A stretch of 64,000 nt of DNA from an uncultured Methanosarcinales archaeon (GCA_964512765.1 CAZEKF010000005.1:6414-70413), one strand, 5' to 3'; numbered from the stretch's first letter, positions 4,234-60,663 are shown. Numbers and translations: made by a program. Notes: a model not told the origin generated them from the sequence alone.

Positions 4234-7107
4234 TCACTTATGTGACAAGACTTTATCAATAGTATCTTTGTCCCATTTCGCTAATTCTAATTCCTTCCTA
4301 ATTTGTTCATCTGACTGTCCTTCTCTTCTACTTTCTGCTACATGGTCTAACAGGTTCTGAAATTTAACATTTACTTCATCTATTTCAACTTCCTTTTTTT
4401 TGTTTTTCCTATTAATTAAGAAAATGAAAAATAATGCAGTAACAAACGCAGGTAAGATCCATGTTTTAAATCTGCTATATAAAAGTTTTATTTCAGTTAG
4501 TAGATTATCTGGTTCTAAAATTACTCTCCATTCATCAACAGGCGTTTCTTCTCCTTTGAATGTTATTGCGAACGTTGACAATCCTTCTGACTCAGCTTTA
4601 AAATAATGAACATCATCAATTGTTTCAATATAAGTTGTGTCTAATTCAACCCAGTCACTATCTATGAATTTAGTCATAACAACATCTTCAATTTTCTTTT
4701 TATGCTCTTTTAACCATGATTGGTTAACACTGAACTCTATTTTTGAAGATGTCACTTCTTTATTATCAATTTCATCATGTTCTATAACTATATATTGAGC
4801 AACAGGTTTACGAATTTCTCTTATTTCTTTTGGAGGCACGTTTCTGTTCTTTATCTTTATAGTTGGTTTATCATACCCTTTTTTGGTTTCAAAAACTACC
4901 TTCCTAACCTGTTCTGTCTCAGGTGTTACTGTTACTGGAGTATCTGCAACTATCTGTTCCAAAACTAAGGTTTCACTTTTTTCAACAACACAATATCCTC
5001 TATAATCACCATGATCTAAATGTGCTCTTGCAGCTGTTTGTGGAACGCATAACTCATGTTCGTTTCCAACAACATGACAAAGTAATGTTTTATGAGGCCT
5101 ACACGCTCCTTTGACAGGTGGTTCTTCAGTATTATCCACTGATGGTTGTTCTGTTTCATCTATTTGGTTATCTGGTATAGTATTATCTTCTGTAACAATC
5201 TCTTCTTGAACATTTTCAGTTATTTCTGTTTCTCCTACAATTGTATTATTTATTTCTTGGTCAACTATCTCATCGCTCTCTGTTGTGATTATGGTTACAT
5301 TTGTTTCTGGAATAACTGGCTCACTAACAATAATTTCACCTTCTGAAGGTACAAATGCTGCTGTATAAAAAGAGTGAAGACTATTAAATGGAAATTGAAC
5401 GTATCCTGTATTAATCTTATTTAATTCAGTATTAATGCTTGATCCAGATAAAGACAACCATTTTTGAGTTTTATTATCAAAGTAATATAAGTTAATACTT
5501 GATTCATCAAACAAATCTGGATCGTCTTCATAATGAATATCCATATCTAAATATCCACCTGATGAATCAAGTCTATAATAACCTCCTATATTTGTCAAGT
5601 TTAGGTTTTCTGGCAATTCATTTTTGCCAATATTTTTTATCCTAACACCTCGTATTTTATTTGCTGAAATCTTATACCCATCTCCAACTATTGTATTTAA
5701 AAAAACATTATTTTCACTTCCACCTAATCTGTCATTTATGTCAACTTCTATCTCATATCCCTCATTAACTTCTACCCTATTGTTCTCAAATAAATTATCA
5801 TTACCTATAGACCAAATGCTGAGTCCTTTTTCATAAACATCAGCTAAAAGTTGAATTGTATTGTCTCTAATTGTATTTTCTCTGCCATGAGTTATGTAAA
5901 CTCCAAAAACTCCTATGCTAGTAGAGGTTATTTTGTTATTTGAAATGACATTATTTATAGGACCAATATAAGTTGGACTATAAGATGAACTAACCGGATT
6001 AAATGATATATGAATTCCAGTTCCTTTATGGTTAGCATACTTATGAGTGGTATCTGTTATTACCTTAATTACATTATTGTCAACCAAAGTATCATTTGAA
6101 TGAAGGTAAATTCCTGCTGCAGGTGCATCTGTATTTTGCTTATTAACAATTATTTCATTATCAATTACCTTTGGTGAAAATTTTGGTAATAGTGAAATTC
6201 CACCTTCGCTAGTAGTTATTTTATTTTCCTTTATAATCAAGTCAGAGACAGCTTCATCAGATATTACATAAATACCACTCTCTGCGTCAATAGTATTTCC
6301 TACAATTTGGCATCCTGTACATTTATTATAAAATCCAATAGAGCCGTCCCCTCGTCTATATCCTTCAATTGTTTTGATATTATTATTTGTGACATCAATA
6401 TTTTTTGAAAATCCTTTTTCAACAGAACCTGTTACATATACTGCTCTTTTATAAACCTCAAAATCATTATTCATAACATTTCCATTTGTGATATCGACTA
6501 ATACAACTCCCCTGCTTGGCTCAATTGGTTGAAATGTATGAGACAGAGGGTCGTATTCACTTCCTGCCACTGCACTCAATGAAGAATATATATTATTTTC
6601 TCTAATTTCAATATTATCTGCATTACTAAGTGAGATTCCAACTTTAAAGTCAATTAGTTCCAAGTTTTTAATAACAATATTATTATGTCCTTCACCAGTA
6701 ATTGCTGTCCCTTTTCCATCACTTTTAATTGAATAGCCATTACCATCAATTGTAATATCTGAAGCACCAACAGTCAAACAAATGCCTGAAGTAACAATAT
6801 CATTTTGTAACACAATGTTTTGTGTAACTGTACCACATGCTGTCCCATCTGTATCGTCTGATTCTAAATCAAAATTGTTTAAGAAGACTGCATAAGTGCC
6901 AAATTCTGTGAGTTCTCCAGAACGAAATTTATTTGATTCTTTATCATGTGTAGATGTCTCAATAAGAACCCATTCTGATAATGATTCATCATATTTTCTT
7001 AGTATTAAACTATCTTCAGAAGCTCCATCTAACAAAGATTCGTCATATTGTAAGGAAAAATCAATGAAACTACCTGGGTCTCCTTCGTCCCACCTTTTTG
7101 CAATCAT
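4234..7107 (-). CDS. large cell-surface protein with right-handed parallel beta-helix (NosD/PbH1-like) repeats, a PGF-pre-PGF-like domain, a C-terminal TM anchor and a short cytoplasmic tail
   Basis: Repeated N/G/I-rich beta-helix turns (ITIDGNGYSI, NNIVIKNLE, NNIYSS and others). Acidic T/E/I-rich linker. A single hydrophobic segment ILPAFVTALFFIFLI is followed by NRKNKKK. There is no N-terminal signal peptide in the ATG-defined ORF. Confidence 0.6.
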   Translation of the reverse strand: MIAKRWDEGDPGSFIDFSLQYDESLLDGASEDSLILRKYDESLSEWVLIETSTHDKESNKFRSGELTEFGTYAVFLNNFDLESDDTDGTACGTVTQNIVLQNDIVTSGICLTVGASDITIDGNGYSIKSDGKGTAITGEGHNNIVIKNLELIDFKVGISLSNADNIEIRENNIYSSLSAVAGSEYDPLSHTFQPIEPSRGVVLVDITNGNVMNNDFEVYKRAVYVTGSVEKGFSKNIDVTNNNIKTIEGYRRGDGSIGFYNKCTGCQIVGNTIDAESGIYVISDEAVSDLIIKENKITTSEGGISLLPKFSPKVIDNEIIVNKQNTDAPAAGIYLHSNDTLVDNNVIKVITDTTHKYANHKGTGIHISFNPVSSSYSPTYIGPINNVISNNKITSTSIGVFGVYITHGRENTIRDNTIQLLADVYEKGLSIWSIGNDNLFENNRVEVNEGYEIEVDINDRLGGSENNVFLNTIVGDGYKISANKIRGVRIKNIGKNELPENLNLTNIGGYYRLDSSGGYLDMDIHYEDDPDLFDESSINLYYFDNKTQKWLSLSGSSINTELNKINTGYVQFPFNSLHSFYTAAFVPSEGEIIVSEPVIPETNVTIITTESDEIVDQEINNTIVGETEITENVQEEIVTEDNTIPDNQIDETEQPSVDNTEEPPVKGACRPHKTLLCHVVGNEHELCVPQTAARAHLDHGDYRGYCVVEKSETLVLEQIVADTPVTVTPETEQVRKVVFETKKGYDKPTIKIKNRNVPPKEIREIRKPVAQYIVIEHDEIDNKEVTSSKIEFSVNQSWLKEHKKKIEDVVMTKFIDSDWVELDTTYIETIDDVHYFKAESEGLSTFAITFKGEETPVDEWRVILEPDNLLTEIKLLYSRFKTWILPAFVTALFFIFLINRKNKKKEVEIDEVNVKFQNLLDHVAESRREGQSDEQIRKELELAKWDKDTIDKVLSHK

Positions 7108-10599: not shown

Positions 10600-10616
10600 T
10601 TTATCATAAAGAAAAG

Positions 10617-10711
10617 TGGGCCAGGGAAGATTTGAACTCCCGACCTTTAGCTTAGAAGGCTTACGGAACACATTGTGTTATACCGCTCTATCCAAGCTGA
10701 GCTACTGGCCC
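10617..10711 (-). tRNA. tRNA-Arg(UCU) with a 20-nt intron inside the 5' strand of the anticodon stem (~10661-10680)
   Basis: GGGCCAG TA GCTC AGCTTGGATA GAGC G GTA[20]GC CTTCTAA GCTAA AGGTC GGGAG TTCAAAT CTTCC CTGGCCC A. The intron is flanked by GCGG-TAT-AACAC...GTGTT-CCGT-AAG (4-bp helix with 3-nt bulges). One 27:43 G.A mismatch remains in the mature stem. Confidence 0.75.
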
Positions 10712-40202: not shown

Positions 40203-41978
40203 TTAACTTAAAAATTTAATAACCTGTTTAACAGTTAATAACTGTTCTTTCCCACTCTTCATATCCCTTAGTTTTACTTTGCCTTGTTTGAGTTCTTTTT
40301 CACCCACAAACACAACATAAGGAAGTCCATAAGAATTTGCATATTGAAGATTTTTGCTTATTCCTCGCTCTAGTAAATCAATATCTGTGTTGATACTTTT
40401 TTCTCTTAACTGCTGTGCTAATTTCAAAGATTGTTTTAATGTTTTAATTGGAATGATGTACAATTTAGTAACTGATTTCTTATTGGCTTTGTTTTTTTCT
40501 TTCAATGCTTCTATGATTACTTCTATGCCAAAACTAATTCCTGTTGCTGGGATTATTTCTTTTGTTCCTAAATAATTTCCAATTAATTCATCATATCTGC
40601 CACCACCTGCTGCAGAACTTGTCAATGAAGATTCTTTTAAAAGCACTTCGTATATTGGACCAGTGTAATATGCAAGACCCCTAGCTAAGCTTGGGTCAAA
40701 CACAATGCTTTTTATCTTATACATTTCGAGAAAATCAAGTAGCTCTCCCATTTCCTGTATCCCTTGCTTACCAATCTTACTTTTAATTATAGATTTTAAT
40801 TTATCAAGAGTTTTTCTATTTGTTTTATCCTTTGACAGGGTATCTAAGATGAACTTTATTTTATCTTTACTATACCCTTGTTCAGATAATTCCTTTGTAA
40901 CTCCTTTTTTGCCTATTTTTTTCAACTTATCAATTGAAACTGTAACAGATTCCCAATCTTTTTTTTTAATTCCAGAATCTTCTAAAACTCCCTCGATTAC
41001 TTTTCTGTTATTTACTTCAATGTAAAACTTGAATCCTAACTCACTAAAAACAGCATCAGTAACTGCTAATATTTCTGCATCTGCAATCATACCTTTAACT
41101 CCAACTATATCTGGGTCAAACTGTCTAAAGCTTCGGTACCTGCCTTTTTTAATGGGCCCATCTCTAAACACTTCACCTTCTAAATATTTTTTAAATGGCA
41201 TTTTAATAGATGGGTTCATTGCAATATACCTTGAAAAAGGTACTGTCATGTCAAATCTTAATCCTAATTTTCTACCACCATTATCTGTTGAAACAAAAAT
41301 CTCCTTTAAAGCATCAGACTCTTCACCTGCTGCAAATTTAGCTGCTAATGTTTCATATCTTTCAAGAATGGGTGTTTCAATTGGACTAAACCCATAAGTT
41401 TCACAAACCTTCTTGATTGTATTAAGAACATAATCTCTAAGGATTTTTTCATTAGGCCCGAAATCTCTTGTGCCTTTAGCTAAATCTATTTTAGATTTTT
41501 TCATTTTTTTAGGTGGTTCTTCTTTATCTAAAACTGTTGATACTATGCTGTATGTATCTTTACCTTTTTTTTCTATCTTTTTTATCTTAAATATGCCAAT
41601 CTCTTTTGTATTATCAACATGAGGGTTGCCACATGCTTGTATATCAAAATCTTTTATTTCAACTACCCTAATCTTTTTAACAGACTCAGGCACCATTGAT
41701 AAGTCAACAAGCTTTTGAGCTTTTTCCCTGCTCATGTTTGTTTTTGTAACTGGCAGATTCTTTTTTATTACTTCATTTACTTTAGTCTCTAACTCCTCAG
41801 GTCCTACCTCCCTAAGATCTTTTTTACACTCCATAACAATCCTTATCTTGTTATCTCCAATATCAAGAGCTTTCTGGATTGTTTTATACTGAGTTCTAAG
41901 AATATTATAAAAAACATGTTCTCCTGATTCCAGTCTTGCGCGTTTACTTACCATAATCTTCACCCTTTCAATGGCCAA
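40203..41978 (-). CDS. hisS: histidyl-tRNA synthetase with an N-terminal AlaX-S-like (tRNA_SAD editing-type) domain
   Basis: Residues ~1-160 carry EHVFYN (HxxxH-like), VVEIKDFDIQACGNPHV (CxxxH) and IGIFKIKKIEKKGK. The HisRS core follows: KGTRDF, RGLAYYTG and GGGRYD. A C-terminal anticodon-binding domain is present. Confidence 0.8.
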   Translation of the reverse strand: MAIERVKIMVSKRARLESGEHVFYNILRTQYKTIQKALDIGDNKIRIVMECKKDLREVGPEELETKVNEVIKKNLPVTKTNMSREKAQKLVDLSMVPESVKKIRVVEIKDFDIQACGNPHVDNTKEIGIFKIKKIEKKGKDTYSIVSTVLDKEEPPKKMKKSKIDLAKGTRDFGPNEKILRDYVLNTIKKVCETYGFSPIETPILERYETLAAKFAAGEESDALKEIFVSTDNGGRKLGLRFDMTVPFSRYIAMNPSIKMPFKKYLEGEVFRDGPIKKGRYRSFRQFDPDIVGVKGMIADAEILAVTDAVFSELGFKFYIEVNNRKVIEGVLEDSGIKKKDWESVTVSIDKLKKIGKKGVTKELSEQGYSKDKIKFILDTLSKDKTNRKTLDKLKSIIKSKIGKQGIQEMGELLDFLEMYKIKSIVFDPSLARGLAYYTGPIYEVLLKESSLTSSAAGGGRYDELIGNYLGTKEIIPATGISFGIEVIIEALKEKNKANKKSVTKLYIIPIKTLKQSLKLAQQLREKSINTDIDLLERGISKNLQYANSYGLPYVVFVGEKELKQGKVKLRDMKSGKEQLLTVKQVIKFLS

Positions 41979-43075
41979 AATGGCTTTATCAATGATTTTT
42001 CAAACAAATCTTTTTTTCTCCAATTAATTTCAATTTTATTTTCTTTCATTATTATCATTCCTTTAAAATGCAATGCAAACACGACTTTTTTAAGGAAATC
42101 TTCTGGTACTTTGATTTTCTTTGATATTTCTTCAACAGTTTTTGGTTTAACACCTTCCCTTAACACCAAATATTCAACAGGTGGTATTTTTTCAGGTTCA
42201 ACTTTAAATGAGAATTTTATCAGGAAATTCTCAAGTTTACCTTTTGGAGTGTATTCAATTGGTAAATCATCTGATACTAAATATGAATTTACTTTTTCTC
42301 TGTTATTAGACAGGTATTCCATTAACATTTTTCCTATTAATTTCTGGCCGCCGTGTAAGTACAACCTGGCAAAGATCTTCATGTACTCGAAATACCGTCT
42401 GGTAAAGTTATGTTCATCTTTAACCTTACTAAAAATGTAACATCTTTCTCTGTAATATTTTAGCACGTCAAAGTTTTTTGTAAGGTCATAGTATATTTTT
42501 AATGAATACCATTGGCACAAACCTTCTTCAAACCATTCAATATACATTTGGTCTTTACTTTTATTCTGTGATAGACATGAATGCAATTGTTCATGTATCA
42601 ATAATATTGGCGTGAAAAACGAACTAACTCTTTTGTTAAGGAAATATATGCCTGCGTTTTTGTTACCTTCAAATATTGTTACTGAACTAGCACCTTTTTT
42701 TTCAAATGATATTAATCCCTGCGGAAAATTGTCATCAAAAAAAATAGATCTTGTTTTGAAGTTCATACCTAATGTTTTTTTTACTTCGTCACGAATTTTA
42801 GGAAGCATGTCTCGCCATAATTTCTCGTCAAACTGTTTCGGCGTGGTTTTCAATTCTTTTTGTATTTTCTTAATATCTTCTTTAAGAATCGTGTTGTACG
42901 CCATGACATTGTTAGTCTTTACTAAATTCTTTAACTTGATATCTGTAGCTTCTGAATAATCGTTTTCTTCATTGAAATTTTTATCCAGTAACTTGTACAT
43001 GCTAGGTTTATAATATCCTAACTTTGTTTTGAAGAACGTGTCTTCAATTACCCGTAATTCTGATAAATTGATCAT
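41960..43075 (-). CDS. hypothetical HExxH protein with a C-terminal winged-helix-like region
   Basis: LLIHEQLHSCL motif. The C-terminal TVEEISKKIKVPEDFLKKVVFALHFKGMIIM is wHTH-like. The gene lies between hisA-IE and hisS, overlapping hisS by 19 nt. Confidence 0.4.
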   Translation of the reverse strand: MINLSELRVIEDTFFKTKLGYYKPSMYKLLDKNFNEENDYSEATDIKLKNLVKTNNVMAYNTILKEDIKKIQKELKTTPKQFDEKLWRDMLPKIRDEVKKTLGMNFKTRSIFFDDNFPQGLISFEKKGASSVTIFEGNKNAGIYFLNKRVSSFFTPILLIHEQLHSCLSQNKSKDQMYIEWFEEGLCQWYSLKIYYDLTKNFDVLKYYRERCYIFSKVKDEHNFTRRYFEYMKIFARLYLHGGQKLIGKMLMEYLSNNREKVNSYLVSDDLPIEYTPKGKLENFLIKFSFKVEPEKIPPVEYLVLREGVKPKTVEEISKKIKVPEDFLKKVVFALHFKGMIIMKENKIEINWRKKDLFEKSLIKPFWPLKG

Positions 43076-43085
43076 CTTATTTCAC

Positions 43086-44330
43086 CTATTGTTCATTTAA
43101 CTCCTCTGATTTTATATAATTTCTTATTTTAAGCTCGTTTTCTATGTCTTTATAATCAATATTGTTCTTAACCATTAACACAGATATAAAATATAACATG
43201 TCTGCAATTTCCCATCTTAAGTTGTTTTTATCAGTATAATTAATCACTTCATTTGCTTCTTCAATGATTTTCTTTATTAACTTTGGTTCATTGTTTAATA
43301 ATTTATCTGTGTATGAATTACTGCCTTTTCTTGATTTAATTATATCTAATAAATCATTGAAACTGAATTCTTTGTCTGAAAAACAACTATAATCTCCTTC
43401 ATGACAAGCTACGTTTTTCTGTTTAACAGTAAAAATTAACGTATCACTGTCACAGTCTGTCTGTATTCTTAACAACTCTTGTGTGTTACTTGATGTTTCG
43501 CCTTTTTTCCATAACTTGTTCCGAGTTCTTGAATAATAGATTCCTTTTCTTTGCTTCAGTGCTTGTTGTACTGATTTTTTATTACTAAATGCTAGCATTA
43601 ATATTTGATTATTTTGGTCTTTGACAATGGTTGGAATTAAACTCATGTTTTTTTCAAAATTTAACAACGAAACAAAGATATCATTATAATTTATCTTATT
43701 TTCATAATATGCCATGCCAATAACAGCGTCAATATCATACCTTGCTAGTTCCAAAATTTGTTCTTTTGTTGATACACCACCTGCATATTGTATTTTATTA
43801 TTTGTAATTTCTCTTAACCTTAATGCTGTATCAATATCAATTCTTTCCATTGTACCTTCCTTGTCAACATATGTGTATAAAAAACCTGAGCAATAGTCTT
43901 GTAATTCAATCACCTTTTCAATCGCTGTCTTGTTTGTTTTATTAGTCCATGCTTTATCAACAATTTTACCTTGTTTTGAGTCAACTGCAACAATAATTTT
44001 TTCTTTTGACAATTTCTTAAGGAAGTCTTTATTAGCTTTTGTTCCAATGATTATTTTGTTTGCTCCTAATTTAAGTATTTCATACGCTTGATCAACTGTC
44101 CTAATACCTCCACCAACATTACAGTTACAGATTTTACATATTTTTCTGATTAATTCAATATTGCTACCTTTGCCAAAAGCTGCGTCAAGATCAATTAAAT
44201 TAACTTCTGGATAAATTGAAAACTTCAGAGCTAAAGCTAATGCATCTTCCTCAAATTTCTTGTTTTGAGGATTGCCCTGAACTAATTTCACCACTTTTCC
44301 ATTCATTAAATCTATACTCGGAACTAAAAT
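43086..44330 (-). CDS. hisA: HisA-HisI-HisE triple fusion (ProFAR isomerase, PR-AMP cyclohydrolase and PR-ATP pyrophosphatase)
   Basis: HisA is the N-terminal domain (VKLVQG...GGGIR). HisI follows (IPTIVKDQNNQILMLAF, SRTRNKLWKKGETS, DCDSDTL, ACHEG..SCF). HisE is the C-terminal domain (SYTDKLL, EEANE, EIADMLY). The conserved VPSIDL strand lies upstream of the first ATG (44306), so the 5' end is set at ATT 44328-44330. That start is uncertain. Confidence 0.75.
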   Translation of the reverse strand: MLVPSIDLMNGKVVKLVQGNPQNKKFEEDALALALKFSIYPEVNLIDLDAAFGKGSNIELIRKICKICNCNVGGGIRTVDQAYEILKLGANKIIIGTKANKDFLKKLSKEKIIVAVDSKQGKIVDKAWTNKTNKTAIEKVIELQDYCSGFLYTYVDKEGTMERIDIDTALRLREITNNKIQYAGGVSTKEQILELARYDIDAVIGMAYYENKINYNDIFVSLLNFEKNMSLIPTIVKDQNNQILMLAFSNKKSVQQALKQRKGIYYSRTRNKLWKKGETSSNTQELLRIQTDCDSDTLIFTVKQKNVACHEGDYSCFSDKEFSFNDLLDIIKSRKGSNSYTDKLLNNEPKLIKKIIEEANEVINYTDKNNLRWEIADMLYFISVLMVKNNIDYKDIENELKIRNYIKSEELNEQ

Positions 44331-45079
44331 CTTACATCAACTCCTTTATTATTCAAATAAGTTTTAACATCATTTATTGAATACTGATCAAAATGGAAAA
44401 TACTAGCAGCTAATGCTGCATCTGCTTTTCCTTTTGTAAATGCTTGATATATTTGTTCTAAATCACCTGCACCACTGCTAGCAATAACAGGTATGTTAAC
44501 AGATTCTGAAATTAATTTAGTTATTTCTAAATCATAACCTTGTTTCATACCATCTGTGTCTAATGAGTTAAGCAGGATTTCACCTGCACCTAATTTTTCG
44601 CACTGTTTAGCAAATTCTAAAGCATTAATTCCTGTTGATTCTTTTCCTCCATAGATGTACAATTCCCAATAATCATTGTTTTTCTTAACATCTAAGGATA
44701 TAACAATGCACTGTGAACCAAATTTATTTGAGGCTTGTTTTATGATTTCAGGGTTTTTCACAGCTTCTGTGCAAAACGCTACTTTATCTGCTCCGTTTTT
44801 TAGGAGCAATTTAATGTCATCAATGGTTTTTATTCCACCACCAACAGTGAACGGAATAAAGATGTTATTAGCTACATTTCTTACTATTTCCAACATAGTT
44901 TTTCTGTTTTCAATGCTTGCTGTAATGTCAAGGAAACATAACTCGTCAGCGCCTTCATTATAATATTTTATAGCTAACTCTACAGGATCACCAATTTCTT
45001 TCAAATTCTTGAAATTAGTGCCTTTGACTACTTTTCCATTTTTTACGTCCAAACAAGGTATGATTCTTTTTGTCAACAT
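44324..45079 (-). CDS. hisF: imidazole glycerol phosphate synthase cyclase subunit HisF
   Basis: RIIPCLDV, DELCFLDI, GGGI and SLDTDG motifs. Confidence 0.9.
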   Translation of the reverse strand: MLTKRIIPCLDVKNGKVVKGTNFKNLKEIGDPVELAIKYYNEGADELCFLDITASIENRKTMLEIVRNVANNIFIPFTVGGGIKTIDDIKLLLKNGADKVAFCTEAVKNPEIIKQASNKFGSQCIVISLDVKKNNDYWELYIYGGKESTGINALEFAKQCEKLGAGEILLNSLDTDGMKQGYDLEITKLISESVNIPVIASSGAGDLEQIYQAFTKGKADAALAASIFHFDQYSINDVKTYLNNKGVDVRF

Positions 45080-45675
45080 TATAACTCACCAAAGTTCTTC
45101 AACATCTTCAGTCCAATCTCACTTGATTTTTCAGGGTGGAACTGTGTTGCATACACATTATATTTTTGGATTCCACTCACGAATTTTGTACCATAGTTTG
45201 TCGTTGTCAACACAACATTATTATCCTCAGGAACAACATAGTATGAATGCACAAAGTAAAAATATCCATTATCTATCCCATTTAGTAATAATGATTCTTT
45301 TTTTTGTTCAACATTGTTCCATCCAATTTGAGGTATTTTTACATTGTTTGGAAATCTTTTTATTTTTCCTTTGATCAATCCAAGCCCTTTAACGCCCAGA
45401 TCTTCTTCACTGTTCTCAAACAATATTTGGAGTCCTATACAAATGCCAAGGTAAAGTTTTCCTTTCTTAATCTCTTCAATCATAACTTTATCAAGCTTTT
45501 CTTCTCCAAGCTTAGTCATGACATCACCAAACCTTCCTTGGCCAGGCAAGATCAATTTATCTGCGTTCATAATCTCTCCTGGATCATCTGTAACCTTGTT
45601 TTTTATTCTAAGATAATCAAGTGCATTCTTGACACTACCTATATTACCTGATCCGTAATCTATTATCGCTATCAT
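45079..45675 (-). CDS. hisH: imidazole glycerol phosphate synthase amidotransferase subunit HisH
   Basis: IAIIDYGSGN, GICIGLQ and FHPEKS triad motifs. Confidence 0.9.
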   Translation of the reverse strand: MIAIIDYGSGNIGSVKNALDYLRIKNKVTDDPGEIMNADKLILPGQGRFGDVMTKLGEEKLDKVMIEEIKKGKLYLGICIGLQILFENSEEDLGVKGLGLIKGKIKRFPNNVKIPQIGWNNVEQKKESLLLNGIDNGYFYFVHSYYVVPEDNNVVLTTTNYGTKFVSGIQKYNVYATQFHPEKSSEIGLKMLKNFGEL

Positions 45676-46262
45676 AGTGTACCTTTTGTACTTGGTATCT
45701 TATCTTTTACCCTGTTATCTATCTCGACTGCTTGTCTGATTGCTTTTGCAAAAGCTTTGAAAATACCTTCAATTTTATGGTGGTCATTTCTTTTTTTGTT
45801 TAACAATTTAACATGGAGGTTTAGCTTTGCATTCTGAGCTATTGCACCAAAAAAATCATACACTAACTCAGTTGATAAATCACCAACTTTTTCTCTATTA
45901 AACTCTGCGTCAAACTCAAAAGCATATCTTCCTGCAAAGTCTAAGCTGACTAAAGCAAGGACTTCATCCATTGGCAATATCATTGTACCGTATCTTCGAA
46001 TGCCTTTTTTGTCACCTACTGCTTTTAACAATGCTTGACCAAGTACTATTCCAATATCTTCAACAGTGTGATGTTCATCTATCTCAATGTCACCTTTTGC
46101 ATTCACTTCTAAATTTATTAGAGAGTGTTTTGCAAACAAGTCTAGCATGTGGTTAAGAAAACCAACTGGTGTCTGGATTTTTCTTTTACCAGAACCGTCT
46201 AGGTTAACTGAAACAGTAATTTGTGTTTCTTTTGTATCACGTTTAATCTTAGCAGTCCTCAT
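45672..46262 (-). CDS. hisB: imidazoleglycerol-phosphate dehydratase (monofunctional HisB)
   Basis: RDTKET, DEHHTVED and NDHHKIE motifs. No phosphatase domain. Confidence 0.9.
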   Translation of the reverse strand: MRTAKIKRDTKETQITVSVNLDGSGKRKIQTPVGFLNHMLDLFAKHSLINLEVNAKGDIEIDEHHTVEDIGIVLGQALLKAVGDKKGIRRYGTMILPMDEVLALVSLDFAGRYAFEFDAEFNREKVGDLSTELVYDFFGAIAQNAKLNLHVKLLNKKRNDHHKIEGIFKAFAKAIRQAVEIDNRVKDKIPSTKGTL

Positions 46263-47953
46263 TTTAGCACCTCATTTAATTTGTTAATATTGTTCAAAAC
46301 AACCTTAACACCTTTATTTTCAAAAAGTTCCTTGATTTTTTCTGATGGAACTGGCGGTATTATTCCAATTGAATCAATATCTGCTTTATTTGCTGCATTA
46401 ATATCATCAACTGTATCACCTATGTACACTACGTTTTTTGCATTCAATTCTTTCATTGCTCTCTTTATTCCATCAGCTTTTTCAGGTTCATCGTCCATTG
46501 TAAAAATAACTTTGAAGAATTTGTCTAAACCAAATTTCTTAATTGTATAATCCGCATCTCTTTTTGGTCTACCTGTTACTAAACCTAACTTGTATTTTTC
46601 AGAAAGTTCTTCCAAAAAATCTAAACTAACAATCAGAGTTTCATTATCAATAGCACCGCCTAAGTAAATAGCGTCAAACTTTTCTCTGATTTCGTCTCTT
46701 GTTTTCTCAACACCACGTTCTTTTAGAATAGCTTGTGTACAGTCCCAGTCATTGTTCAAACCGCCTTTTTCCTTATATTTCTGTATTTGTTCAAAGGTTA
46801 TTTCTTTGTCTTTTAGAAAATATTCTGCTGTTTGTTTAATCGCAACTCTGTAAGATTTTGAAACATCTACTAAAACACCGTCCATATCGAATAGTAAGGT
46901 ATCGTATTTGTTCAATTTAGTCAAGATTATTTTCAATGCTTCAATTAATTTTTCACACTGTTCTTTCTTCCCAACAGTTATTCTTAAACAATTCTTAACA
47001 TAACTATTTCTATCTCTTACTAGTATTCCTAGTTTTTTTAATCCTGCATACACTGTTTTATACCTTAAACCAAAATCAACTAAGAAAAAGTTTGCACTAC
47101 CTTGATAAAATTTAATTCCAAGTTTATTTAGTTCATTGTATAGATATTTTTTATTAGTTATAATTTCACCAACATAGTTTTCAACGTATTCGTAATCTTC
47201 CAGTGCTGCTTTAACAATTTTATTTGCAAGACAAGTTATACTGTAAGGAGAGTTTACTTTTTGAAACAATTCAATATTCTCTTTATTTGAGATTAAATAT
47301 CCTAACCTCAATCCTCCAAGTCCAAACGCTTTTGAGAAAGATCTAAGTATTACTAGATTCGGATACTTATCAATTAAATCAACACATGTTTCCTTTGTAA
47401 ACTCAGAATATGCTTCATCTAATAAAACAATAGAATTTTTTGCTTTGTCAAGTATTTTAATTATGTCTTTTCTTAGTATTGATGTGCCAGTAGGATTGTT
47501 TGGATTCACTAGTACAATTAGTTTAACATTTTCATTAATTGCATTTAAAACTTCATCTGTTGGAAAAGATAAATCTGGTTTGTATTGCACATTTTTAATA
47601 TTTGCACCATTTAACTCTGCATAAAACTTAAACATAGCAAAAGTCGGTGTTGGAAGCAAAACTGTATCACCTTTACTAACAAAAGTATTCATTATTAACA
47701 TAATCCCTTCATCTCCTGCATTTGTTGGAATAATTTTTGACATGTCAACTTTAACAAAATCAGCAATAAGTTTTCTTAACTCGTTATATTCTGGATACAT
47801 CGATAGTTCACTTGCTGTTACTGTTTTTAATGCTTCAATTACTTTTGGTGAACAACCTACTGTGTTCTCATTAAAATCTAATCTCATATATTCACTTCTA
47901 CTACAAGTAGGTGGACTGTACGGTGCCATTTTTATTACTTCTTTTCGTATCAT
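46259..47953 (-). CDS. hisC: histidinol-phosphate aminotransferase fused to a C-terminal HAD-superfamily phosphatase domain
   Basis: HisC occupies residues 1-~345 (NPNNPTG, SFSKAFGLGGLRLGY). The HAD domain follows from ~350 (LLFDMDGVLVD, GLVTGRP, GDTVDDINAA). Confidence 0.8.
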   Translation of the reverse strand: MIRKEVIKMAPYSPPTCSRSEYMRLDFNENTVGCSPKVIEALKTVTASELSMYPEYNELRKLIADFVKVDMSKIIPTNAGDEGIMLIMNTFVSKGDTVLLPTPTFAMFKFYAELNGANIKNVQYKPDLSFPTDEVLNAINENVKLIVLVNPNNPTGTSILRKDIIKILDKAKNSIVLLDEAYSEFTKETCVDLIDKYPNLVILRSFSKAFGLGGLRLGYLISNKENIELFQKVNSPYSITCLANKIVKAALEDYEYVENYVGEIITNKKYLYNELNKLGIKFYQGSANFFLVDFGLRYKTVYAGLKKLGILVRDRNSYVKNCLRITVGKKEQCEKLIEALKIILTKLNKYDTLLFDMDGVLVDVSKSYRVAIKQTAEYFLKDKEITFEQIQKYKEKGGLNNDWDCTQAILKERGVEKTRDEIREKFDAIYLGGAIDNETLIVSLDFLEELSEKYKLGLVTGRPKRDADYTIKKFGLDKFFKVIFTMDDEPEKADGIKRAMKELNAKNVVYIGDTVDDINAANKADIDSIGIIPPVPSEKIKELFENKGVKVVLNNINKLNEVLK

Positions 47954-49248
47954 TTTTCATCATCCTCAAACCTTATTTTAACTGAATTAGCGTGAGCAGG
48001 TAAACTTTCAAGCTCTGCTATTGTAACAATAGTATTTTTTAATGAATCAAGCCCTTGCTTTGTTAATTTTTGGATAGTTGGCATTTTCAAAAAATCATAA
48101 ACACTTAACCCTGACTTTACCTTAGCATACTGTCCTGTTGATAACACATGGTTAGTGCCAGAACAATAATCACCTGCAGCTTCCACACTATATTCTCCAA
48201 AAAATATTGAACCTGCATTAGATATCCTGTCCAAGATGGAGTCATCATAACCAATGATTTCTAAGTGTTCAGGTGCAAAATCATTACTAAACTCAATAGC
48301 TTGGTCAACAGAATCTACTACAACAATACAACTATAATTTTCAAAAGATTTTTTAATGATTTCTTTTGATTCAAACTTAGCTGTTTGTTTAATAATTTCT
48401 TTTTTTACGGATTCTGCTAATTGTCTTGACTCTGTAAACAATAAACCACACGCAACTTCATCATGTTCAGCTTGTGCTAGCATGTCAGCTGCTACGAACC
48501 TTGGATTAGAATCTTTTGAAGCAATGATTACTACTTCACTCGGGCCAGCAGGAATGTCAATACCAACTTCACCATACAACCATTTCTTAGCTGCTGTGAC
48601 ATAGATATTACCTGGACCGACTATCTTGTTAACTTTAGGAATAGTTTTTGTGCCATACGCTAAAGCAGCTATTGCTTGAGCACCACCAGATACAATAATT
48701 TTATCAGCACCTGCCAGATCTGCTGCAACAATAATTGCTGGGTTTGCTTTACCATTTTTTTGAGGTGGTGTTGCTACAATAATTTCTTTAACTCCTGTAA
48801 CCTTAGCAGGAACAATTGTCATTAATGTTGTAGAAGGTAAAGGATAATTACCTCCAGGTATGTAACATCCTACTCTTTCAATTGGCCTAATAAAAACACC
48901 GCAGTTAACTCCCTTAGATATTTCAGTTAAGAAAGGTTTTGGTTTTTGGGTTTCTGCAAACTTTTTAATATTAGACAATGCTTTTTTTATTGCTGTAATT
49001 TGGTTTTCATCTACTATCTTGTAAGCTTCATTAATTTCATTTTTACTGACAATCAGATCACTTTCTTTTAATTTTACATTGTCGAACTTATTTGCATATT
49101 CAACTAATGCTTTGTTGCCATTAATCTTTACATTATTGATTACTTGTTTTACTTTATCCTCTATTTCTGTAAGATCTGAACTTGACCTTTGTTTAACTTT
49201 ATTGATTTCTTCTTTGTCCTTGTTATAATCTAAGATTCTTACTTTCAT
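47950..49248 (-). CDS. hisD: histidinol dehydrogenase
   Basis: YIPGGNYPLPST, QAEHDE and APEHLE motifs. Confidence 0.9.
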   Translation of the reverse strand: MKVRILDYNKDKEEINKVKQRSSSDLTEIEDKVKQVINNVKINGNKALVEYANKFDNVKLKESDLIVSKNEINEAYKIVDENQITAIKKALSNIKKFAETQKPKPFLTEISKGVNCGVFIRPIERVGCYIPGGNYPLPSTTLMTIVPAKVTGVKEIIVATPPQKNGKANPAIIVAADLAGADKIIVSGGAQAIAALAYGTKTIPKVNKIVGPGNIYVTAAKKWLYGEVGIDIPAGPSEVVIIASKDSNPRFVAADMLAQAEHDEVACGLLFTESRQLAESVKKEIIKQTAKFESKEIIKKSFENYSCIVVVDSVDQAIEFSNDFAPEHLEIIGYDDSILDRISNAGSIFFGEYSVEAAGDYCSGTNHVLSTGQYAKVKSGLSVYDFLKMPTIQKLTKQGLDSLKNTIVTIAELESLPAHANSVKIRFEDDEK

Positions 49249-49830
49249 TTTCTATCACCTATAATAACAAAATCTGAATAGAAAATTTTGTCATAAACTT
49301 TCAAGCCAAGCTTTTTCATAGACTTGCCAGTATATACAATATCAATCACTAACCCAGCAATGCCTGCTGAATAACTTGCTTCTGTACTACCTTTTACATA
49401 GAATTTTTTGAAATTAAATCCTCTAGTTTCAAGTAAGTTAAGGTATTTTTTTGACAGAAGTTTGTATTTATTACTAATACAGATCGATTGTTGTTTGGGA
49501 ATATTGTCAAGGTCTTTGTTATCTGGTCCAAGTAAACATAAAACAGGTTTATTAAACAAAGCTTTGGGATCATTCCAATCAATAATCTTAAGAATTTTTG
49601 TAGTTGTTTTGTAATTCTTTAAACAATATTCTTTGTAAAGGTCTTGGCCAGTTATACCAATGGCTTTTTTACCTTGTTTGGTTAATTCTTCAACCCAAAA
49701 TGGAACATCTTCACCACGTACTTCAAGAGTTTCTTTAGGTTCCAAAGTTTCAATAAATTCCTTGTATTTCCTTAATCCACTATTCTTTGGTACAACAGTG
49801 AATACAACCAGTCTCTATGACTCTTTCCAT
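49245..49830 (-). CDS. hisG: short-form ATP phosphoribosyltransferase HisG; the 5' end needs a +1 frame change or a non-canonical start
   Basis: The track ORF (TTG 49745) begins at RGEDVPFWV...IGITGQDL and therefore lacks the N-terminal strand. The conserved-looking LVVFTVVPKNSGLRKYKEFIETL is encoded in the same frame upstream (49746-49811) without an ATG, GTG or TTG. An ATG at 49828-49830 with GGAGGT 6 nt upstream lies in the frame one nucleotide off. Confidence 0.65.
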
Positions 49831-49860
49831 GTTCAGACCTCCATTTATAGTATTAAAAAG

Positions 49861-49947
49861 GGCCATAGGCGGGAATCGAACCCGCGCCACAGGATTTCCA
49901 TATTTGGATTCCACAGTCCTGTATTCTCCCACTAAACTACTACAGCC
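49861..49947 (-). tRNA. tRNA-His(GUG) with a genomically encoded G-1 and a 15-nt intron at 37/38 (49896-49910)
   Basis: G GCTGTAG TA GTTTAGTGGGAGAAT A CAGGA CTGTGG[15]A TCCTG TGGC GCGGG TTCGATT CCCGC CTATGGC C. G-1 sits opposite C73. Confidence 0.8.
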
Positions 49948-49969
49948 ATACTGAGCTTTATTAGAACAA

Positions 49970-50087
49970 ACAATGAATGCATTCCCCAGATTGGTTACTG
50001 GCAATGCCTCTAAGATTAGATTTCTGATTATTTAAAATAGATTTAGAACTACCGACAATGAATACAATCTCCAGGTTGGTTACTGGC
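49970..50087 (-). repeat. two 33-nt imperfect direct repeats upstream of tRNA-His, each about 26 nt downstream of a TATA-like box
   Basis: On the minus strand, GCCAGTAACCAATCTGGGGAATGCATTCATTGT (50002-49970) and GCCAGTAACCAACCTGGAGATTGTATTCATTGT (50087-50055) match at 29 of 33 positions. The preceding boxes are TTTTAAATA and TTTTTATATAAG. Confidence 0.6.
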
Positions 50088-50215
50088 TTTCATAGTTGCA
50101 TGGGAAAGCATATCTTATATAAAAATGTTTCCTGATATTTTAATAGACGAGAAAATTGACGATAAACAGTTTTTTTAACAAATTTTATAAATTCTGTAAC
50201 ACTAACTTAACTACT

Positions 50216-50716
50216 ATGGTACAAATAAAAAGCATTCCAAAAACAAGATGGAAAGAACATAAAGAATTAAGGTTAGAAGCATTAAAGAAATATCCAAAAG
50301 CATTTGGTACATCATTAAAGGAAGAACTCAAGTTCAAAGAAAAAGATTGGAATAACAGAACATGGACAAAGAACTCTGACACTGTTTTTGCCCTTGATAA
50401 TAATAAGTTGGTTGGAATGGTAGCGTATTTTGTAGTAGATAGATTGTCACAAAGACATATTGCAAACGTTGTTGGGATGTATGTTAAAGAAGAATATCAG
50501 AACCAAGGTGTTGGTAAGAAGTTATTAGAAGCAATTTTCAAGAAAATCAAAGAGCGCGGTGGTGTAACAAAAATGAAAATAACTGTGGTTACAACCAATA
50601 AACCTGCCCTGAAATTGTATGAGAAGGTTGGGTTTAAAAAAACAGCATTACTCAAGAAAGAATTAAAAATTAATGGCAAATATTATGACGAGTATTTGAT
50701 GGAAATGTTACTTTAA
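50216..50716 (+). CDS. GNAT-family N-acetyltransferase
   Basis: VGMYVKEEYQNQGVGKKLLEA acetyl-CoA motif. Start taken at ATG 50216. Confidence 0.75.
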   Translation: MVQIKSIPKTRWKEHKELRLEALKKYPKAFGTSLKEELKFKEKDWNNRTWTKNSDTVFALDNNKLVGMVAYFVVDRLSQRHIANVVGMYVKEEYQNQGVGKKLLEAIFKKIKERGGVTKMKITVVTTNKPALKLYEKVGFKKTALLKKELKINGKYYDEYLMEMLL

Positions 50717-58117: not shown

Positions 58118-58161
58118 TTAGAGTAAGAAAAAATAATTAATTTAAAAAGAAATGGAATACC

Positions 58162-60663
58162 TTATTTGTTCATCTCTTCTAAAACCTTAATCACAAACTC
58201 AACATGTTCATTAAACTCAATACCGAACTTTTCTATCCCATAGTTTATCTCTTCTCTGCTAACTTTTGCTGCAAATTTCATGTCTTTGAACTTTTTCTTG
58301 AATGATTTAACTTTCATTCCTTTGAATCCGTCTGGTCTCATTAATGAATATGCGTACATTATACCTGTTAACTCATCAACAGCTAACAATCCAAAAGCTA
58401 GTTTAGTCTGTGGTTTAACACCTGTTTCTAAGTAGCAATGTGCTTCAACTGCATGCACCAACTCATCAGGATATTTCTTTTTCTTAAACCATTCAATTTC
58501 TTTAAACGGATGTTCATTTGGATGTTCTTGATAATCAAGATCATGCAACAGTCCAGTAACATACCATAACTGTTTATTCTCTTTTAACTTTTCAGCGTAT
58601 TTTTCCATGACATAAGCAACTGTCTTAGCGTGTTCTACCTGGTACTTGTCCTTAACATGTTTTTTCAATAATGCCATTGCTTCTTTTCTAGAAGGTAATC
58701 CTGATAAATCCTTAGAAATTTTCTTTTTAGGAGTACTAACAGCTTTTGCACTTGAATCATACAATTCAAACTTCTCAGTTATTTTATCAACAACTGATTT
58801 TTTACCAAACACTAAAACACCTAAATATTCTATATCTTTTTGTTTTTTAGATTTTGTCCAATCAACAACTTTTGTATCATCTGTTGTTTCAATCATCTCT
58901 CTGGTAAATTCACTAACTTGTAATCCTTTATTTTTCGCAGTTTTTATTAAATTAAAAACCTCTTCTTTAGACTTTGCAGTTTTAATCATGATTGCGTGCT
59001 GGATGTTAAGTTTAATGTTTTTATCATCTTTTGTGGTTATTTCATCTTGCAAAAATAGACTCTTACCTATCCTTGCAGCAAACGCAGCATTAAGATGCGC
59101 AACAGTGTTCATTTCTTCCCATAGTTTAAGTTTCAACCCTTTGTTAATAACGGCAACAGCAATTTTAGATTCTTTTGATTTAACAGCTTCTGGAATGTCC
59201 AATGGTTTCATAATAGGGAACAAAATAATGTCCCGGATAGATTCCTGGCCAGTCATTAGCATTATCATTCTATCAACGCCAACACCGTTACCGCTGTTAG
59301 GCGGAAGACCATATTCTAATGATTCAACAAAGTCCATGTCCAAGGGATGGGCTTCATCGTCACCAGCTTTCATTTGCTCAGCTTGTTCCTGGAAATTTTT
59401 CAACTGTAAAACAGGATCGTTTATTTCAGTGTATAAGTTTCCAACTTCCCATGTATTTACAAAAGATTCAGCTCGCTCAGCATATCTGTTATCATACCTA
59501 CACGGTTTTGCTAAAGGACATATCTCAACAGGATGGTCAATAATATGCACTGGCTGGATTAACTTTTCTTCGCACAATTCTTCAAACAATAATGAGATAG
59601 CTAATCCTTTTGAATACTTACCTTGAATCTCAATGTCGTGTTTTTTTAGTAATTTTTTAACTTCTTTATCATTCAATTTTTCAGCATCGATCTTTGCATA
59701 TTTTTTCAAAGCATCAACCATCCTTAATTTCGGCCATGGTGCTTTAACATCAATAGTTTTTTTGCCAAATTTTAATTTTGTAGTTCCTAACAATTTTTTA
59801 GCAACATATTCCCATAACTCTTCTGTTAACTTCATGTTATCATTGTAATCAGCGTACGCCCATTGTATTTCCATCATAGTAAACTCTGGGTTATGCGTTT
59901 TATCACTACCTTCATTTCTAAAACATGAGCTAAGGTCATAGATTTTTTCAAATCCACCAACAATTAATTTTTTCAAATAAATTTCATATGCAATACGCAA
60001 GTACATTTTCATGTCCCATGCATTAATCTTTGTAACAAACGGTCTTGCTAAACCACCACCATATAATGGCTGTAATATAGGAGTTTGTACTTCCATGAAT
60101 CCTTTATTATCAAGGAACTCTCGAATATATTTCATAATGTTTGATCTTTTAACAAACACATCTTTTGCTTCAGGGTTAACAACAAAGTCAACGTATCTTT
60201 TTCTATACCTTGATTCAATATCTTTCAACCCGTGATATTTTTCAGGAAATGGTCTTATTGACTTAGCCAGAAAAGTAAACTTTTTTACAAAAACACTTAT
60301 CTCACCAGTTTTAGTTGTGAAAACAATGCCTTTGACACCAACACAATCTCCAACATCTACTTTTTTAAAGATTTTATACTGATCTTTAACTTCGTCTTTT
60401 CTAATATGAACTTGAATTTTACCTGAACCGTCTTGTAAATGAAAAAACGCAACTTTACCCATGTTTCTTAACGAAACTACCCTCCCCGCTATTGAAACAT
60501 TATGTTTTGTGTATTTCTCAGGTTTTAACTTCTTATGTTTTTTAAGAATTTCTTGAGCAGAATTCTTTTGATCGTAGTTATACGGGTATATTTCAACACC
60601 CCAACTTTCTAATTCTTTGAGCTTATCCTTACGTTCTTTTACTAACCTATGTTCTGAGTCCAT
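58162..60663 (-). CDS. lysS: class II lysyl-tRNA synthetase fused to DUF2000-like and HD-domain modules
   Basis: LysRS occupies residues 1-~497 (OB anticodon-binding domain, FRNEGSDKTHNPEFTMME, GVGVDRMIMLMTG). Residues ~505-640 are DUF2000/PTH2-like (IAVAVINKGL...NTVAHL...YLGVLVFGKKSVVDKIT). Residues ~655-833 are an HD domain (HAKTVA...GLLHDLD...AVEAHC). Confidence 0.8.
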   Translation of the reverse strand: MDSEHRLVKERKDKLKELESWGVEIYPYNYDQKNSAQEILKKHKKLKPEKYTKHNVSIAGRVVSLRNMGKVAFFHLQDGSGKIQVHIRKDEVKDQYKIFKKVDVGDCVGVKGIVFTTKTGEISVFVKKFTFLAKSIRPFPEKYHGLKDIESRYRKRYVDFVVNPEAKDVFVKRSNIMKYIREFLDNKGFMEVQTPILQPLYGGGLARPFVTKINAWDMKMYLRIAYEIYLKKLIVGGFEKIYDLSSCFRNEGSDKTHNPEFTMMEIQWAYADYNDNMKLTEELWEYVAKKLLGTTKLKFGKKTIDVKAPWPKLRMVDALKKYAKIDAEKLNDKEVKKLLKKHDIEIQGKYSKGLAISLLFEELCEEKLIQPVHIIDHPVEICPLAKPCRYDNRYAERAESFVNTWEVGNLYTEINDPVLQLKNFQEQAEQMKAGDDEAHPLDMDFVESLEYGLPPNSGNGVGVDRMIMLMTGQESIRDIILFPIMKPLDIPEAVKSKESKIAVAVINKGLKLKLWEEMNTVAHLNAAFAARIGKSLFLQDEITTKDDKNIKLNIQHAIMIKTAKSKEEVFNLIKTAKNKGLQVSEFTREMIETTDDTKVVDWTKSKKQKDIEYLGVLVFGKKSVVDKITEKFELYDSSAKAVSTPKKKISKDLSGLPSRKEAMALLKKHVKDKYQVEHAKTVAYVMEKYAEKLKENKQLWYVTGLLHDLDYQEHPNEHPFKEIEWFKKKKYPDELVHAVEAHCYLETGVKPQTKLAFGLLAVDELTGIMYAYSLMRPDGFKGMKVKSFKKKFKDMKFAAKVSREEINYGIEKFGIEFNEHVEFVIKVLEEMNK

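Follow-up and report, generated by a model that had tools for sequence, protein, structure and literature searches.

The 64,000-nucleotide stretch of archaeal DNA analysed here (the window; CAZEKF010000005.1:6414-70413) has a G+C content of about 31% and carries a closely packed histidine biosynthesis cluster, which runs on the minus strand in the order hisG, hisD, hisC/HAD, hisB, hisH, hisF, hisA/I/E, a gene for a protein of 371 amino acids (aa) and hisS (Pfam/NCBIfam). The relatives of its HisG are found in DPANN archaea labelled Woesearchaeota, Nanoarchaeota, Pacearchaeota and similar. We focus on the region preceding hisG, which appears to be a composite leader made up of a tRNA-His gene and three cassettes (NUU-CAY, encoding Ile-His) at which translating ribosomes would shift by +1. 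All features described below lie on the minus strand.

hisG is out of frame with the SD-led ATG

The Shine–Dalgarno (SD) motif GGAGGT (49837-49842) starts 18 nucleotides (nt) past C73 of the tRNA, the distance given in an earlier account made from the DNA letters alone (the sequence-only reading). It stands 6 nt before an ATG at 49830 and is kept in 39 and 38 related loci of the two sets described below. The same account took this ATG for the ordinary start of hisG, which does not hold: the frame it opens (frame 0) stops after 16 codons at TAG 49782-49780, and hisG lies in the +1 frame. The resulting leader open reading frame (ORF; 49780-49830) encodes MERVIETGCIHCCTKE, the product expected without a shift. 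In the +1 frame, a TAG at 49817-49815 is followed by no ATG, GTG or TTG before the conserved VVPKNSGL motif.

The leader ORF contains the sequence ATT CAC at 49798-49803 (ATT 49803-49801, CAC 49800-49798), the third of the putative shift sites. A +1 shift at site 3 is predicted to skip C49800 and to continue with ACT GTT GTA CCA into the +1-frame body of hisG (49245-49799). The predicted trans-frame HisG is a short form of 194 aa that begins MERVIETGCI/TVVPKNSGL, where the slash marks the junction (junction peptide ...VIETGCITVVPK); gene callers truncate the protein to 166 aa. A 551-nt region is identical in six independent metagenome contigs from different samples, and the two closest relatives (72-77% HisG identity) have the same out-of-frame arrangement. 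The frame break is therefore not an assembly error.

Conservation of the +1 offset and of the histidine codon

We retrieved 80 species-representative loci with internal HisG peptides and searched for an SD-led ATG upstream of the conserved proline codon; a second, independent set comprised 80 metagenome loci. Among the species loci, hisG was offset from the SD-led ATG by +1 in 39, by 0 in six and by +2 in none, and the corresponding numbers for the metagenome loci were 38, three and none. With a relaxed criterion that considered the site only, 111 loci had the site and 28 were in frame. The architecture and its reading frames are conserved in about 110 loci.

Every +1 locus has a frame-0 histidine codon (CAT or CAC) after NTT, which is ATT or, less often, CTT or GTT, and this histidine codon lies 10 or 7 nt before the proline codon. 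For each locus, we defined the region in which a shift is allowed as the interval from the last stop codon of the +1 frame to the first stop codon of frame 0. Intersecting these regions over all loci left only -12 to +2 nt around the histidine codon. The narrowest limits come from L075, where a +1-frame TAG ends 2 nt before the histidine codon, and from L010, L014, L015 and L044, where a frame-0 stop is present at +2. In the +1 frame, the C of CAY falls on the third position of a phenylalanine codon. All 39 loci have TTC here, against a share of only 32% for TTC among the 2958 phenylalanine codons of these loci (log10 P = -21.7, treating the loci as independent).

The loci in which hisG is in frame (class A) provide a natural counterpart to the shifted loci (class B). 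Their N-termini correspond to the frame-0 peptide of class B loci joined to the HisG body exactly at the histidine codon. Thus, MKIENNFDFIIVPKN of L082 (class A) matches MEVIDNFDFI/IVPKN of L072 (class B), and the same holds for AKDCIIVVPNN of L069 versus TSDCI/IVVPNN of L025, for NCDYIIVPKN of L052 versus SCDYI/IVPKN of L049, and for MINTQDYIIVVPKN of L013 versus MINSRGCI/IVVPK of L095, a pair whose HisG bodies are 79% identical. Class A lineages are polyphyletic and scattered among class B, which indicates that the single-nucleotide difference arose repeatedly at the spot of the histidine codon.

A canonical start codon at the alternative position in the hisG frame is missing in 11 of 39 loci, seven of which (including the window) have CTG and four AGG, CGG or GGG. 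In several loci, the open part of the hisG frame is devoid of start codons. A variant of the arrangement was seen in L053, L055, L058 and L062, where an SD-led upstream ORF (uORF; for example MISKGDLFHGPQL) lies about 76-85 nt upstream of the proline codon. Its histidine codon overlaps the in-frame ATG of hisG (TTT C ATG G), such that the post-shift codon is itself ATG.

We weighed other ways of joining the two frames. Synonymous changes after the CTG in the +1 frame of the three closest relatives first suggested a shift further upstream, before the CTG (GAG-A-CTG or ACT-G-GTT); this site was rejected because the broader set of loci places the junction at the histidine codon. Quadruplet decoding of CAUU by tRNA-His was rejected as well, given that the tRNA has a normal 7-nt loop and that the residue at the class A junction is isoleucine rather than histidine. 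Transcriptional slippage is unlikely, as there is no homopolymer at the site.

Two further cassettes upstream of the tRNA gene

The TATA box TTTATATA (50116-50123) is located 22 nt upstream of the ATG of a mini-ORF encoding MKASNQPGDCIHCR (mini-ORF 1, 50049-50093), a geometry that suggests a leaderless archaeal transcript. Homologous mini-ORFs are found in the relatives L007 (MRLSNQSVDCIHC), L010, L091 and L011, and mini-ORFs of the MKRVDCIHCE type in about 20 other lineages. Some 30 related loci have a TTTATATA or TTTAAATA box that starts roughly 30 nt before the ATG of a mini-ORF of 9-27 codons. The mini-ORFs of relatives contain the motif D/G-C/Y-I/L-H, as in MKRVDCIHCE and MRLSNQSVDCIHC.

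Mini-ORF 1 contains shift site 1, ATT CAT (50058-50063; P-site Ile, A-site His), and shares its cassette consensus with the hisG-proximal sites. The +1 segment that follows site 1 (49961-50059) encodes IVGSSKSILNNQKSNLRGIASNQSGECIHCLF and ends at TAA 49963-49961. Within this segment lies a second copy of the cassette with shift site 2, again ATT CAT (49973-49978), which has no start codon of its own. The two copies coincide with the repeats R1 (mini-ORF 1) and R2, which span 49 nt, are 78% identical and lie 85 nt apart. The sequence-only reading had described them as two repeats, each preceded by a TATA element; the repeats are real, and they prove to be copies of the histidine-codon cassette. 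R1 and R2 might instead be operators of the winged helix-turn-helix protein, remnants of a duplicated hisG 5' end or genes for small peptides; the cross-species pattern of mini-ORF and promoter favours functional shift cassettes, although the repeats may also act as operators. A second TATA-like element, ATTTTAAATAA (50028-50038), lies inside the +1 frame of site 1, about 55 nt upstream of R2, and might serve the tRNA-His precursor as a constitutive promoter of its own.

The cassette, TGRTTgtaTT-CAT-tgt, is kept in 45 upstream mini-ORF sites that precede no hisG. Its conservation at these sites can therefore be explained neither by the coding of hisG nor by its start. Nine loci lack the tRNA gene (L031 and L039, the Iainarchaeota-type loci L036, L038, L045, L050 and L130, and L110 and L131). 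There, the +1 frame of the mini-ORF runs for 18-29 codons into frame 0 of the hisG-proximal cassette, and HisG can be reached from the leaderless ATG only by two successive +1 shifts; this path is open in nine of nine loci. The second frame offers no ATG in L031 and L039, in the Iainarchaeota loci L036, L038 and L045, or in L110, L130 and L131.

The tRNA-His gene and its linkage to hisG

The tRNA gene extends from G-1 to C73 (49861-49947) and is contained in the +1 frame that stays open behind site 2. Its identity is not obvious from automated calls: ARAGORN in default mode reported Phe(GAA) at 49860-49946 and in intron mode Ser(GGA), and the Rfam alignment placed an 18-nt insertion in the anticodon loop. 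Excising 15 nt (49910-49896) at the canonical position 37/38 joins exon 1 (49947-49911) to exon 2 (49895-49861) and yields tRNA-His(GUG) with a 7-nt anticodon loop. The genomically encoded G-1 (49947) faces C73 (49861), and the fold has the 8-bp acceptor stem that is a hallmark of tRNA-His. The relatives L007, L008 and L010 have near-identical exons without the intron and are called tRNA-His directly. Intron removal and the intron-less orthologues rule out a Phe or Ser identity, and they bear out, together with the G-1:C73 pair, the earlier assignment as tRNA-His(GUG).

The T5 run reported in the sequence-only reading is present directly after the tRNA (49855-49859), where it resembles a weak archaeal terminator and encodes phenylalanine in the open frame. 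Runs of T3-T5 are found behind the tRNA in most relatives. We located tRNA-His genes in the related loci by explicit enumeration. Many of them have introns of 11-81 nt and are miscalled by ARAGORN. Of the 75 species loci with sufficient upstream sequence, 44 have a tRNA-His on the strand of hisG that ends no more than 700 nt before it (median gap, 51 nt), and three further species loci have the order tRNA-His, HisRS, hisG. No tRNA other than tRNA-His was ever found at this position. The physical linkage of tRNA-His, his genes and hisS, proposed earlier from a single locus, is thus real and conserved, and the synteny comparison that had been suggested as a check showed that the tRNA-His adjacency is kept despite extensive rearrangement of the rest of the cluster.

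In the relatives, the leader ATG typically follows the tRNA 3' end at 12-30 nt, with the SD motif 2-20 nt from the tRNA. This leaves no room for a B recognition element (BRE), a TATA box and a transcription start site, and the his mRNA is therefore presumably transcribed through the tRNA-His gene, in agreement with the sequence-only reading. In the window, the sequence TATAAAT (49849-49843) is located between the tRNA and the SD motif; a transcript that it directed would begin near 49818 and would lack both SD and ATG, which supports the doubt already cast on it as the promoter of hisG. The earlier suggestion of feedback on tRNA-His charging is plausible alongside this co-transcription. One locus, L051, has no SD-led ATG anywhere between the tRNA and hisG. 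In L010 (about 6190-6290), the 3' end of the tRNA-His is duplicated between the tRNA and hisG (GATTCTCGCTCGTGGCCCTT occurs twice, about 75 nt apart), a pattern suggestive of past integration of an element into the tRNA gene.

An open frame through the tRNA gene

The three cassettes of the window are arranged in series. Site 1 leads into the frame that ends at TAA 49963-49961, site 2 into a 65-codon frame that runs across the tRNA-His gene, the T5 run, the TATAAAT sequence and the SD motif and meets ATG 49830 in frame, and site 3 into hisG. In a simulation with a shift at every NTT-CAY, the ribosome travels from ATG 50093 to the stop codon of hisG without encountering a stop.

The same property recurs in relatives. 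Of the roughly 46 loci that have a leaderless mini-ORF, 17 keep the post-shift frame open for 110-435 nt through tRNA-His to the hisG leader; they belong to the clade of the window (L007, L010, L011 and L091) and to more distant lineages. The open frame either joins the ATG of the hisG leader in frame or stops right there, as in L010 (CTT TAA C ATG). Over the same stretches, the post-shift frame contains no stop codon, and the other two frames contain 75 and 161. With about seven stops expected per locus, some 0.1% of loci would be open by chance, compared with 37% observed.

A separate set of loci, termed group X, has a different leader (L016, L021, L023, L025, L028, L032, L034, L035, L043, L061, L105, L108, L149 and L161). 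A +1 shift in its leaderless mini-ORF would yield a conserved peptide of about 33 aa, which ends in a histidine run, SIHHHC followed by a stop. The peptide is followed, ahead of the tRNA, by a conserved TTCTTGCATTGTTTAG and runs of T6-T7, which gives this region an attenuator-like appearance.

Proposed mechanism

In the mechanism we propose, the leader RNA would begin downstream of the TATA box with the leaderless mini-ORF and site 1, continue through the second cassette (site 2) and the tRNA-His with its T5 run, and end with an SD-led leader of 10 codons that terminates at site 3. With Ile-tRNA in the P site and CAC waiting for His-tRNA-His in the A site, the ribosome would advance by one base and thereby enter the hisG frame. 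A ribosome that failed to shift would terminate after the 16-aa peptide, and no HisG would be made. Scarcity of charged tRNA-His would slow the decoding of the histidine codon and raise the frequency of the shift, which would switch on HisG, and the 4-nt overlaps between the genes would pass the effect on to hisD, hisC-HAD, hisB and hisH. The tRNA-His gene would be co-transcribed as part of the leader. The upstream cassettes would gate the travel of ribosomes through the tRNA and the T-run, and may choose between tRNA maturation or termination on the one hand and operon expression on the other.

From the comparative evidence, we infer that the shift occurs, that it responds to histidine and that transcription passes through the tRNA. 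The +1 frameshift at NUU-CAY is probably the real decoding route of hisG; that it also acts as a histidine sensor co-transcribed with tRNA-His is reasonably likely, and we hold this second claim with less assurance. More tentatively, the leader may be a counterpart of attenuation, which we regard as possible and rather doubtful. With plentiful His-tRNA-His, ribosomes would stop after about 14 codons, the tRNA-His would fold and be processed, and transcription or translation would largely end at the T-run. With scarce His-tRNA-His, ribosomes would shift at each cassette and translate through the tRNA and the T-run, arriving in frame at the hisG leader for a last shift into hisG. The RNA would then serve as mRNA and not as tRNA precursor, termination would possibly be suppressed, and the serial cassettes would make the response steeply non-linear. 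If the leader tRNA-His is the sole copy, its promoter would have to be constitutive and regulation of the his genes would have to act after initiation, which would explain the design.

Several observations weigh against these proposals. Support comes throughout from comparative sequence analysis of uncultured organisms, and the loci are phylogenetically related, which inflates the P-values. Re-pairing of the P-site tRNA from AUU to UUC retains only two of three base pairs. The number of cassettes within the window alone is not significant (two matches versus 1.3 expected), the stop-codon statistic for the open frame was computed on loci selected as open, and in the roughly 19 loci of group X, with their different leader, the +1 ORF ends (IHHHC-stop) well before the tRNA. 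In 35 of 39 loci, the alternative start position is taken by GTG, TTG or, as in the window (49811), CTG, and some independent initiation may take place there. Finally, TATAAAT 49849-49843 could be an internal promoter that gives rise to a short-leader transcript from near 49818.

Alternative explanations

The NTG codons are the basis of an explanation that dispenses with frameshifting and that we consider unlikely. Here, hisG would start at a weak codon of its own frame (CTG 49811 in the window, GTG or TTG in most relatives), and the SD-led ORF would be an overlapping regulatory uORF at whose histidine codon ribosomes pause. The NTG stands at the homologous position, 11 nt upstream of the histidine codon, gene callers begin many homologues at that GTG, and a histidine-containing uORF would likewise always occupy this one frame. 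However, the four species with AGG, CGG or GGG at this position have no such start, and in L075 a +1-frame stop is placed 2 nt before the histidine codon. The NTG has no SD motif in front of it, the nearest one being 22-34 nt off, and its T and G are equally conserved in the upstream cassettes that precede no hisG. In-frame relatives bear the frame-0 peptide and not the VIVF peptide that initiation at the NTG would give. The double-cassette loci have a startless second ORF, so that a shift is required in any case. Moreover, a ribosome stalled at the histidine codon would cover the NTG and repress HisG during starvation, which is the wrong regulatory sign.

A second explanation accepts the +1 shift and makes it constitutive: it would set a fixed low level of HisG or correct a tolerated indel, and histidine would not be sensed. 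The comparative data indeed show that a shift is required, not that it is regulated, and reduced genomes are known to use 'corrective' frameshifting (Atkins et al. 2016, PMC5009743). We nevertheless judge this explanation improbable. The A-site codon is histidine in 100% of about 110 sites, in a gene of the histidine pathway; the cassette is duplicated in series in the leaders; and group X adds a histidine run (IHHHC-stop). The feature has also been retained across several DPANN lineages although in-frame revertants arise easily.

The adjacency of tRNA-His and hisG might, in principle, be an inherited gene order without function, with hisG transcribed from TATAAAT 49849-49843 and the tRNA transcript terminating at the T5 run. 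The window does contain both elements between the tRNA and the SD motif, and tRNA genes commonly end in T-runs. This explanation is very improbable, as the TATAAAT transcript would begin downstream of the SD and ATG, the spacer between tRNA and SD is only 2-13 nt in many relatives and too short for a promoter, and tRNA-His, the only tRNA ever found there, is kept through extensive rearrangement of the cluster. Lastly, a 5' frame break in a single sequence looks like a pseudogene or a sequencing or assembly error, a view effectively refuted by the identity of six contigs from different samples, by the recurrence of the +1 offset, at one and the same nucleotide, in about 110 loci drawn from many assemblies and by the intact, conserved remainder of hisG and the operon.

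Genes of the his operon and other features of the window

All domains of the histidine pathway are encoded in the cluster: HisG, HisE, HisI, HisA, HisH, HisF, HisB (imidazoleglycerol-phosphate dehydratase, IGPD), HisC and HisD (Pfam/NCBIfam). The hisG body is followed by hisD (histidinol dehydrogenase, 47950-49248), which overlaps it by 4 nt, by the fusion of hisC with a HAD phosphatase domain (46259-47953), hisB (45672-46262), hisH (45079-45675) and hisF (44324-45079), by the hisA-hisI-hisE triple fusion (43086-44306), which encodes a single polypeptide, and by the genes for the 371-aa protein (41960-43075) and the histidyl-tRNA synthetase HisRS (40203-41978). The HAD domain fused to HisC is the likely candidate for the histidinol-phosphate phosphatase. 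Neighbouring genes overlap by 4 nt at four of the first five junctions and by 1 nt at the fifth. Further downstream come two short gaps and then an overlap of 19 nt, so that the spacing ranges from this overlap to a gap of 17 nt at most. The gene order from hisG to hisS and the tight spacing described in the sequence-only reading were both recovered. A T6 run (40202-40197) directly follows the stop codon of hisS.

HisG is a divergent short form of about 190 aa. Its sole domain is PF01634 (66 bits), and it lacks the C-terminal regulatory domain HisG_C, as had been noted from the sequence. The linked synthetase is a true HisRS: it scores 357.4 bits against TIGR00442 (cutoff 286.75), and its domains include PF13393 and PF03129, so that the anticodon-binding domain is present. 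A search of the 64-kb window for a second HisRS or a HisZ-like sequence gave none, which leaves the terminal hisS as the only HisRS-like gene there, as previously stated. Linkage of hisG and HisRS is widespread among relatives, with HisRS downstream of hisG on the same strand in 33 of 80 loci, and includes minimal tRNA-His/hisG(-hisIE)/HisRS clusters. This pattern is compatible with the idea that HisRS doubles as HisZ. The arrangement resembles the bacterial system of short HisG and HisZ, where HisG also lacks the C-terminal regulatory domain and a gene of the HisRS family is linked in many genomes; in the DPANN loci, however, the linked gene is a bona fide HisRS and not HisZ. The N-terminus of the HisRS is an AlaX-like, editing-type domain (tRNA_SAD, residues 15-143; AlaXM model, 2.8e-22), an unusual domain for a HisRS, and the relatives L001 and L008 have this fusion as well.

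In the minimal clusters (L044, L063-L066, L068, L072-L074, L077-L079, L082, L084 and L086), tRNA-His is followed by hisG, which is often fused to hisIE (about 300-400 aa), and by HisRS, and further his genes are absent from the vicinity. These organisms may make no histidine with these genes or may have the remaining his genes elsewhere.

The 371-aa protein belongs to a family found only in DPANN archaea (41 homologues, 40-92% identity) and has no Pfam match. Its invariant residues are H161-E162-x-x-H165, which form an HExxH motif, and E183/E184. In the AlphaFold2 model (predicted local distance difference test, pLDDT, 92), the last 70 or so residues weakly resemble a MarR-type winged helix, as judged from sequence and fold searches of the PDB; the N-terminal 290 residues gave no PDB fold match. 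The protein could be a regulator, and nothing connects it to the shift cassettes.

Elsewhere in the window, tRNA genes with introns or insertions were called at 3243-3396, 2086-2209 and 10616-10711; one of the three has an 83-nt intron, one has two insertions (38 and 16 nt) and one is a tRNA-like call without an assigned anticodon. At about 58160-60660 (L001, 1-1584 and beyond), the window encodes a class-II aminoacyl-tRNA synthetase of 833 aa in which tRNA-synt_2 and an OB anticodon domain are joined to DUF2000 and an HD domain.

Comparison with known systems

The leader looks like a previously undescribed way of sensing histidine shortage, by a +1 frameshift at a histidine codon. A literature search found no description of hisG frameshifting or of a DPANN linkage of tRNA-His with his genes, although its coverage was incomplete and the result is not proof, and hisG is not among the genes given in the GeneTack surveys. 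If confirmed, hisG would be the first cellular gene of an archaeon with a +1 programmed frameshift, and its leader would contain the first natural 'hungry' sense codon that serves as an amino-acid sensor for its own biosynthetic pathway. It would show how archaea with tiny genomes and few transcription factors can regulate amino-acid biosynthesis, and that a tRNA gene can sit embedded in a translated leader. It would also explain the systematic truncations and mis-starts of hisG in DPANN genomes, the shifted form accounting for about 80% of this HisG family, and would provide a compact, portable cassette of 13 nt that is directly testable in reporters.

The only demonstrated case of programmed ribosomal frameshifting (PRF) in an archaeal cellular gene is the -1 PRF of Sulfolobus fucA1 (2021 review, PMC8211752). 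As in hisG, the gene is split into two overlapping frames and relatives have full-length in-frame homologues, but the fucA1 shift is a -1 shift on an A-AAA-AAT heptamer and is confined to a single lineage. The antizyme gene OAZ1 shares with the proposed leader a metabolite-responsive +1 shift that is both sensor and effector of a feedback loop; it differs in that polyamines are sensed at a stop codon, in eukaryotes and outside an operon leader. In the +1 shifts at hungry codons of yeast Ty1 (CUU-AGG-C) and Ty3 (GCG-AGU-U) and of starved E. coli, a slow sense codon in the A site drives the shift, as we propose for CAY. These cases, however, sense a rare tRNA or are laboratory phenomena, and no natural example of hungry-codon, starvation-specific synthesis of a trans-frame protein is known (Atkins et al. 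2016, PMC5009743).

Judged by analogy, bacterial his attenuation and the T-box are the closest systems by purpose, and prfB is the closest mechanistic analogue. In his attenuation (hisL peptide MTRVQFKHHHHHHHPD; Rfam His_leader), the histidine codons of a short ORF in the 5' leader likewise read the level of charged tRNA-His, and the resemblance extends to the IHHHC-stop run of one DPANN group. In the window, by contrast, the read-out would be a change of reading frame, with one histidine codon per cassette. A search of 49600-50300 with the Rfam His leader (RF00514, E<=1) gave no match, only the tRNA being matched, and no terminator or antiterminator hairpins were identified. The Firmicutes T-box upstream of hisS and his genes also couples tRNA-His charging to the expression of these genes. 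Its covariance model in Rfam did not match the leader region; here, the tRNA gene itself is present in cis and sensing would take place on the ribosome.

The likeness to bacterial prfB, which encodes release factor 2 (RF2) and shifts at CUU UGA C with the help of an SD-like element, is more detailed. Both would involve a +1 shift, a P-site codon of the NUU type and an A site that awaits a limiting decoding factor, and in both the site lies early in the gene, the frame-0 product is short and the logic is that of negative feedback. The place of the SD-like stimulator would be taken by GUGAU, a conserved candidate element 3 nt upstream of the P-site codon. The differences lie in what is sensed and where: at hisG, the A-site codon is a sense codon for histidine, the level of His-tRNA-His would be read instead of that of a release factor, and the device would operate in archaea, as two to three cassettes in series, at the head of a biosynthetic operon.

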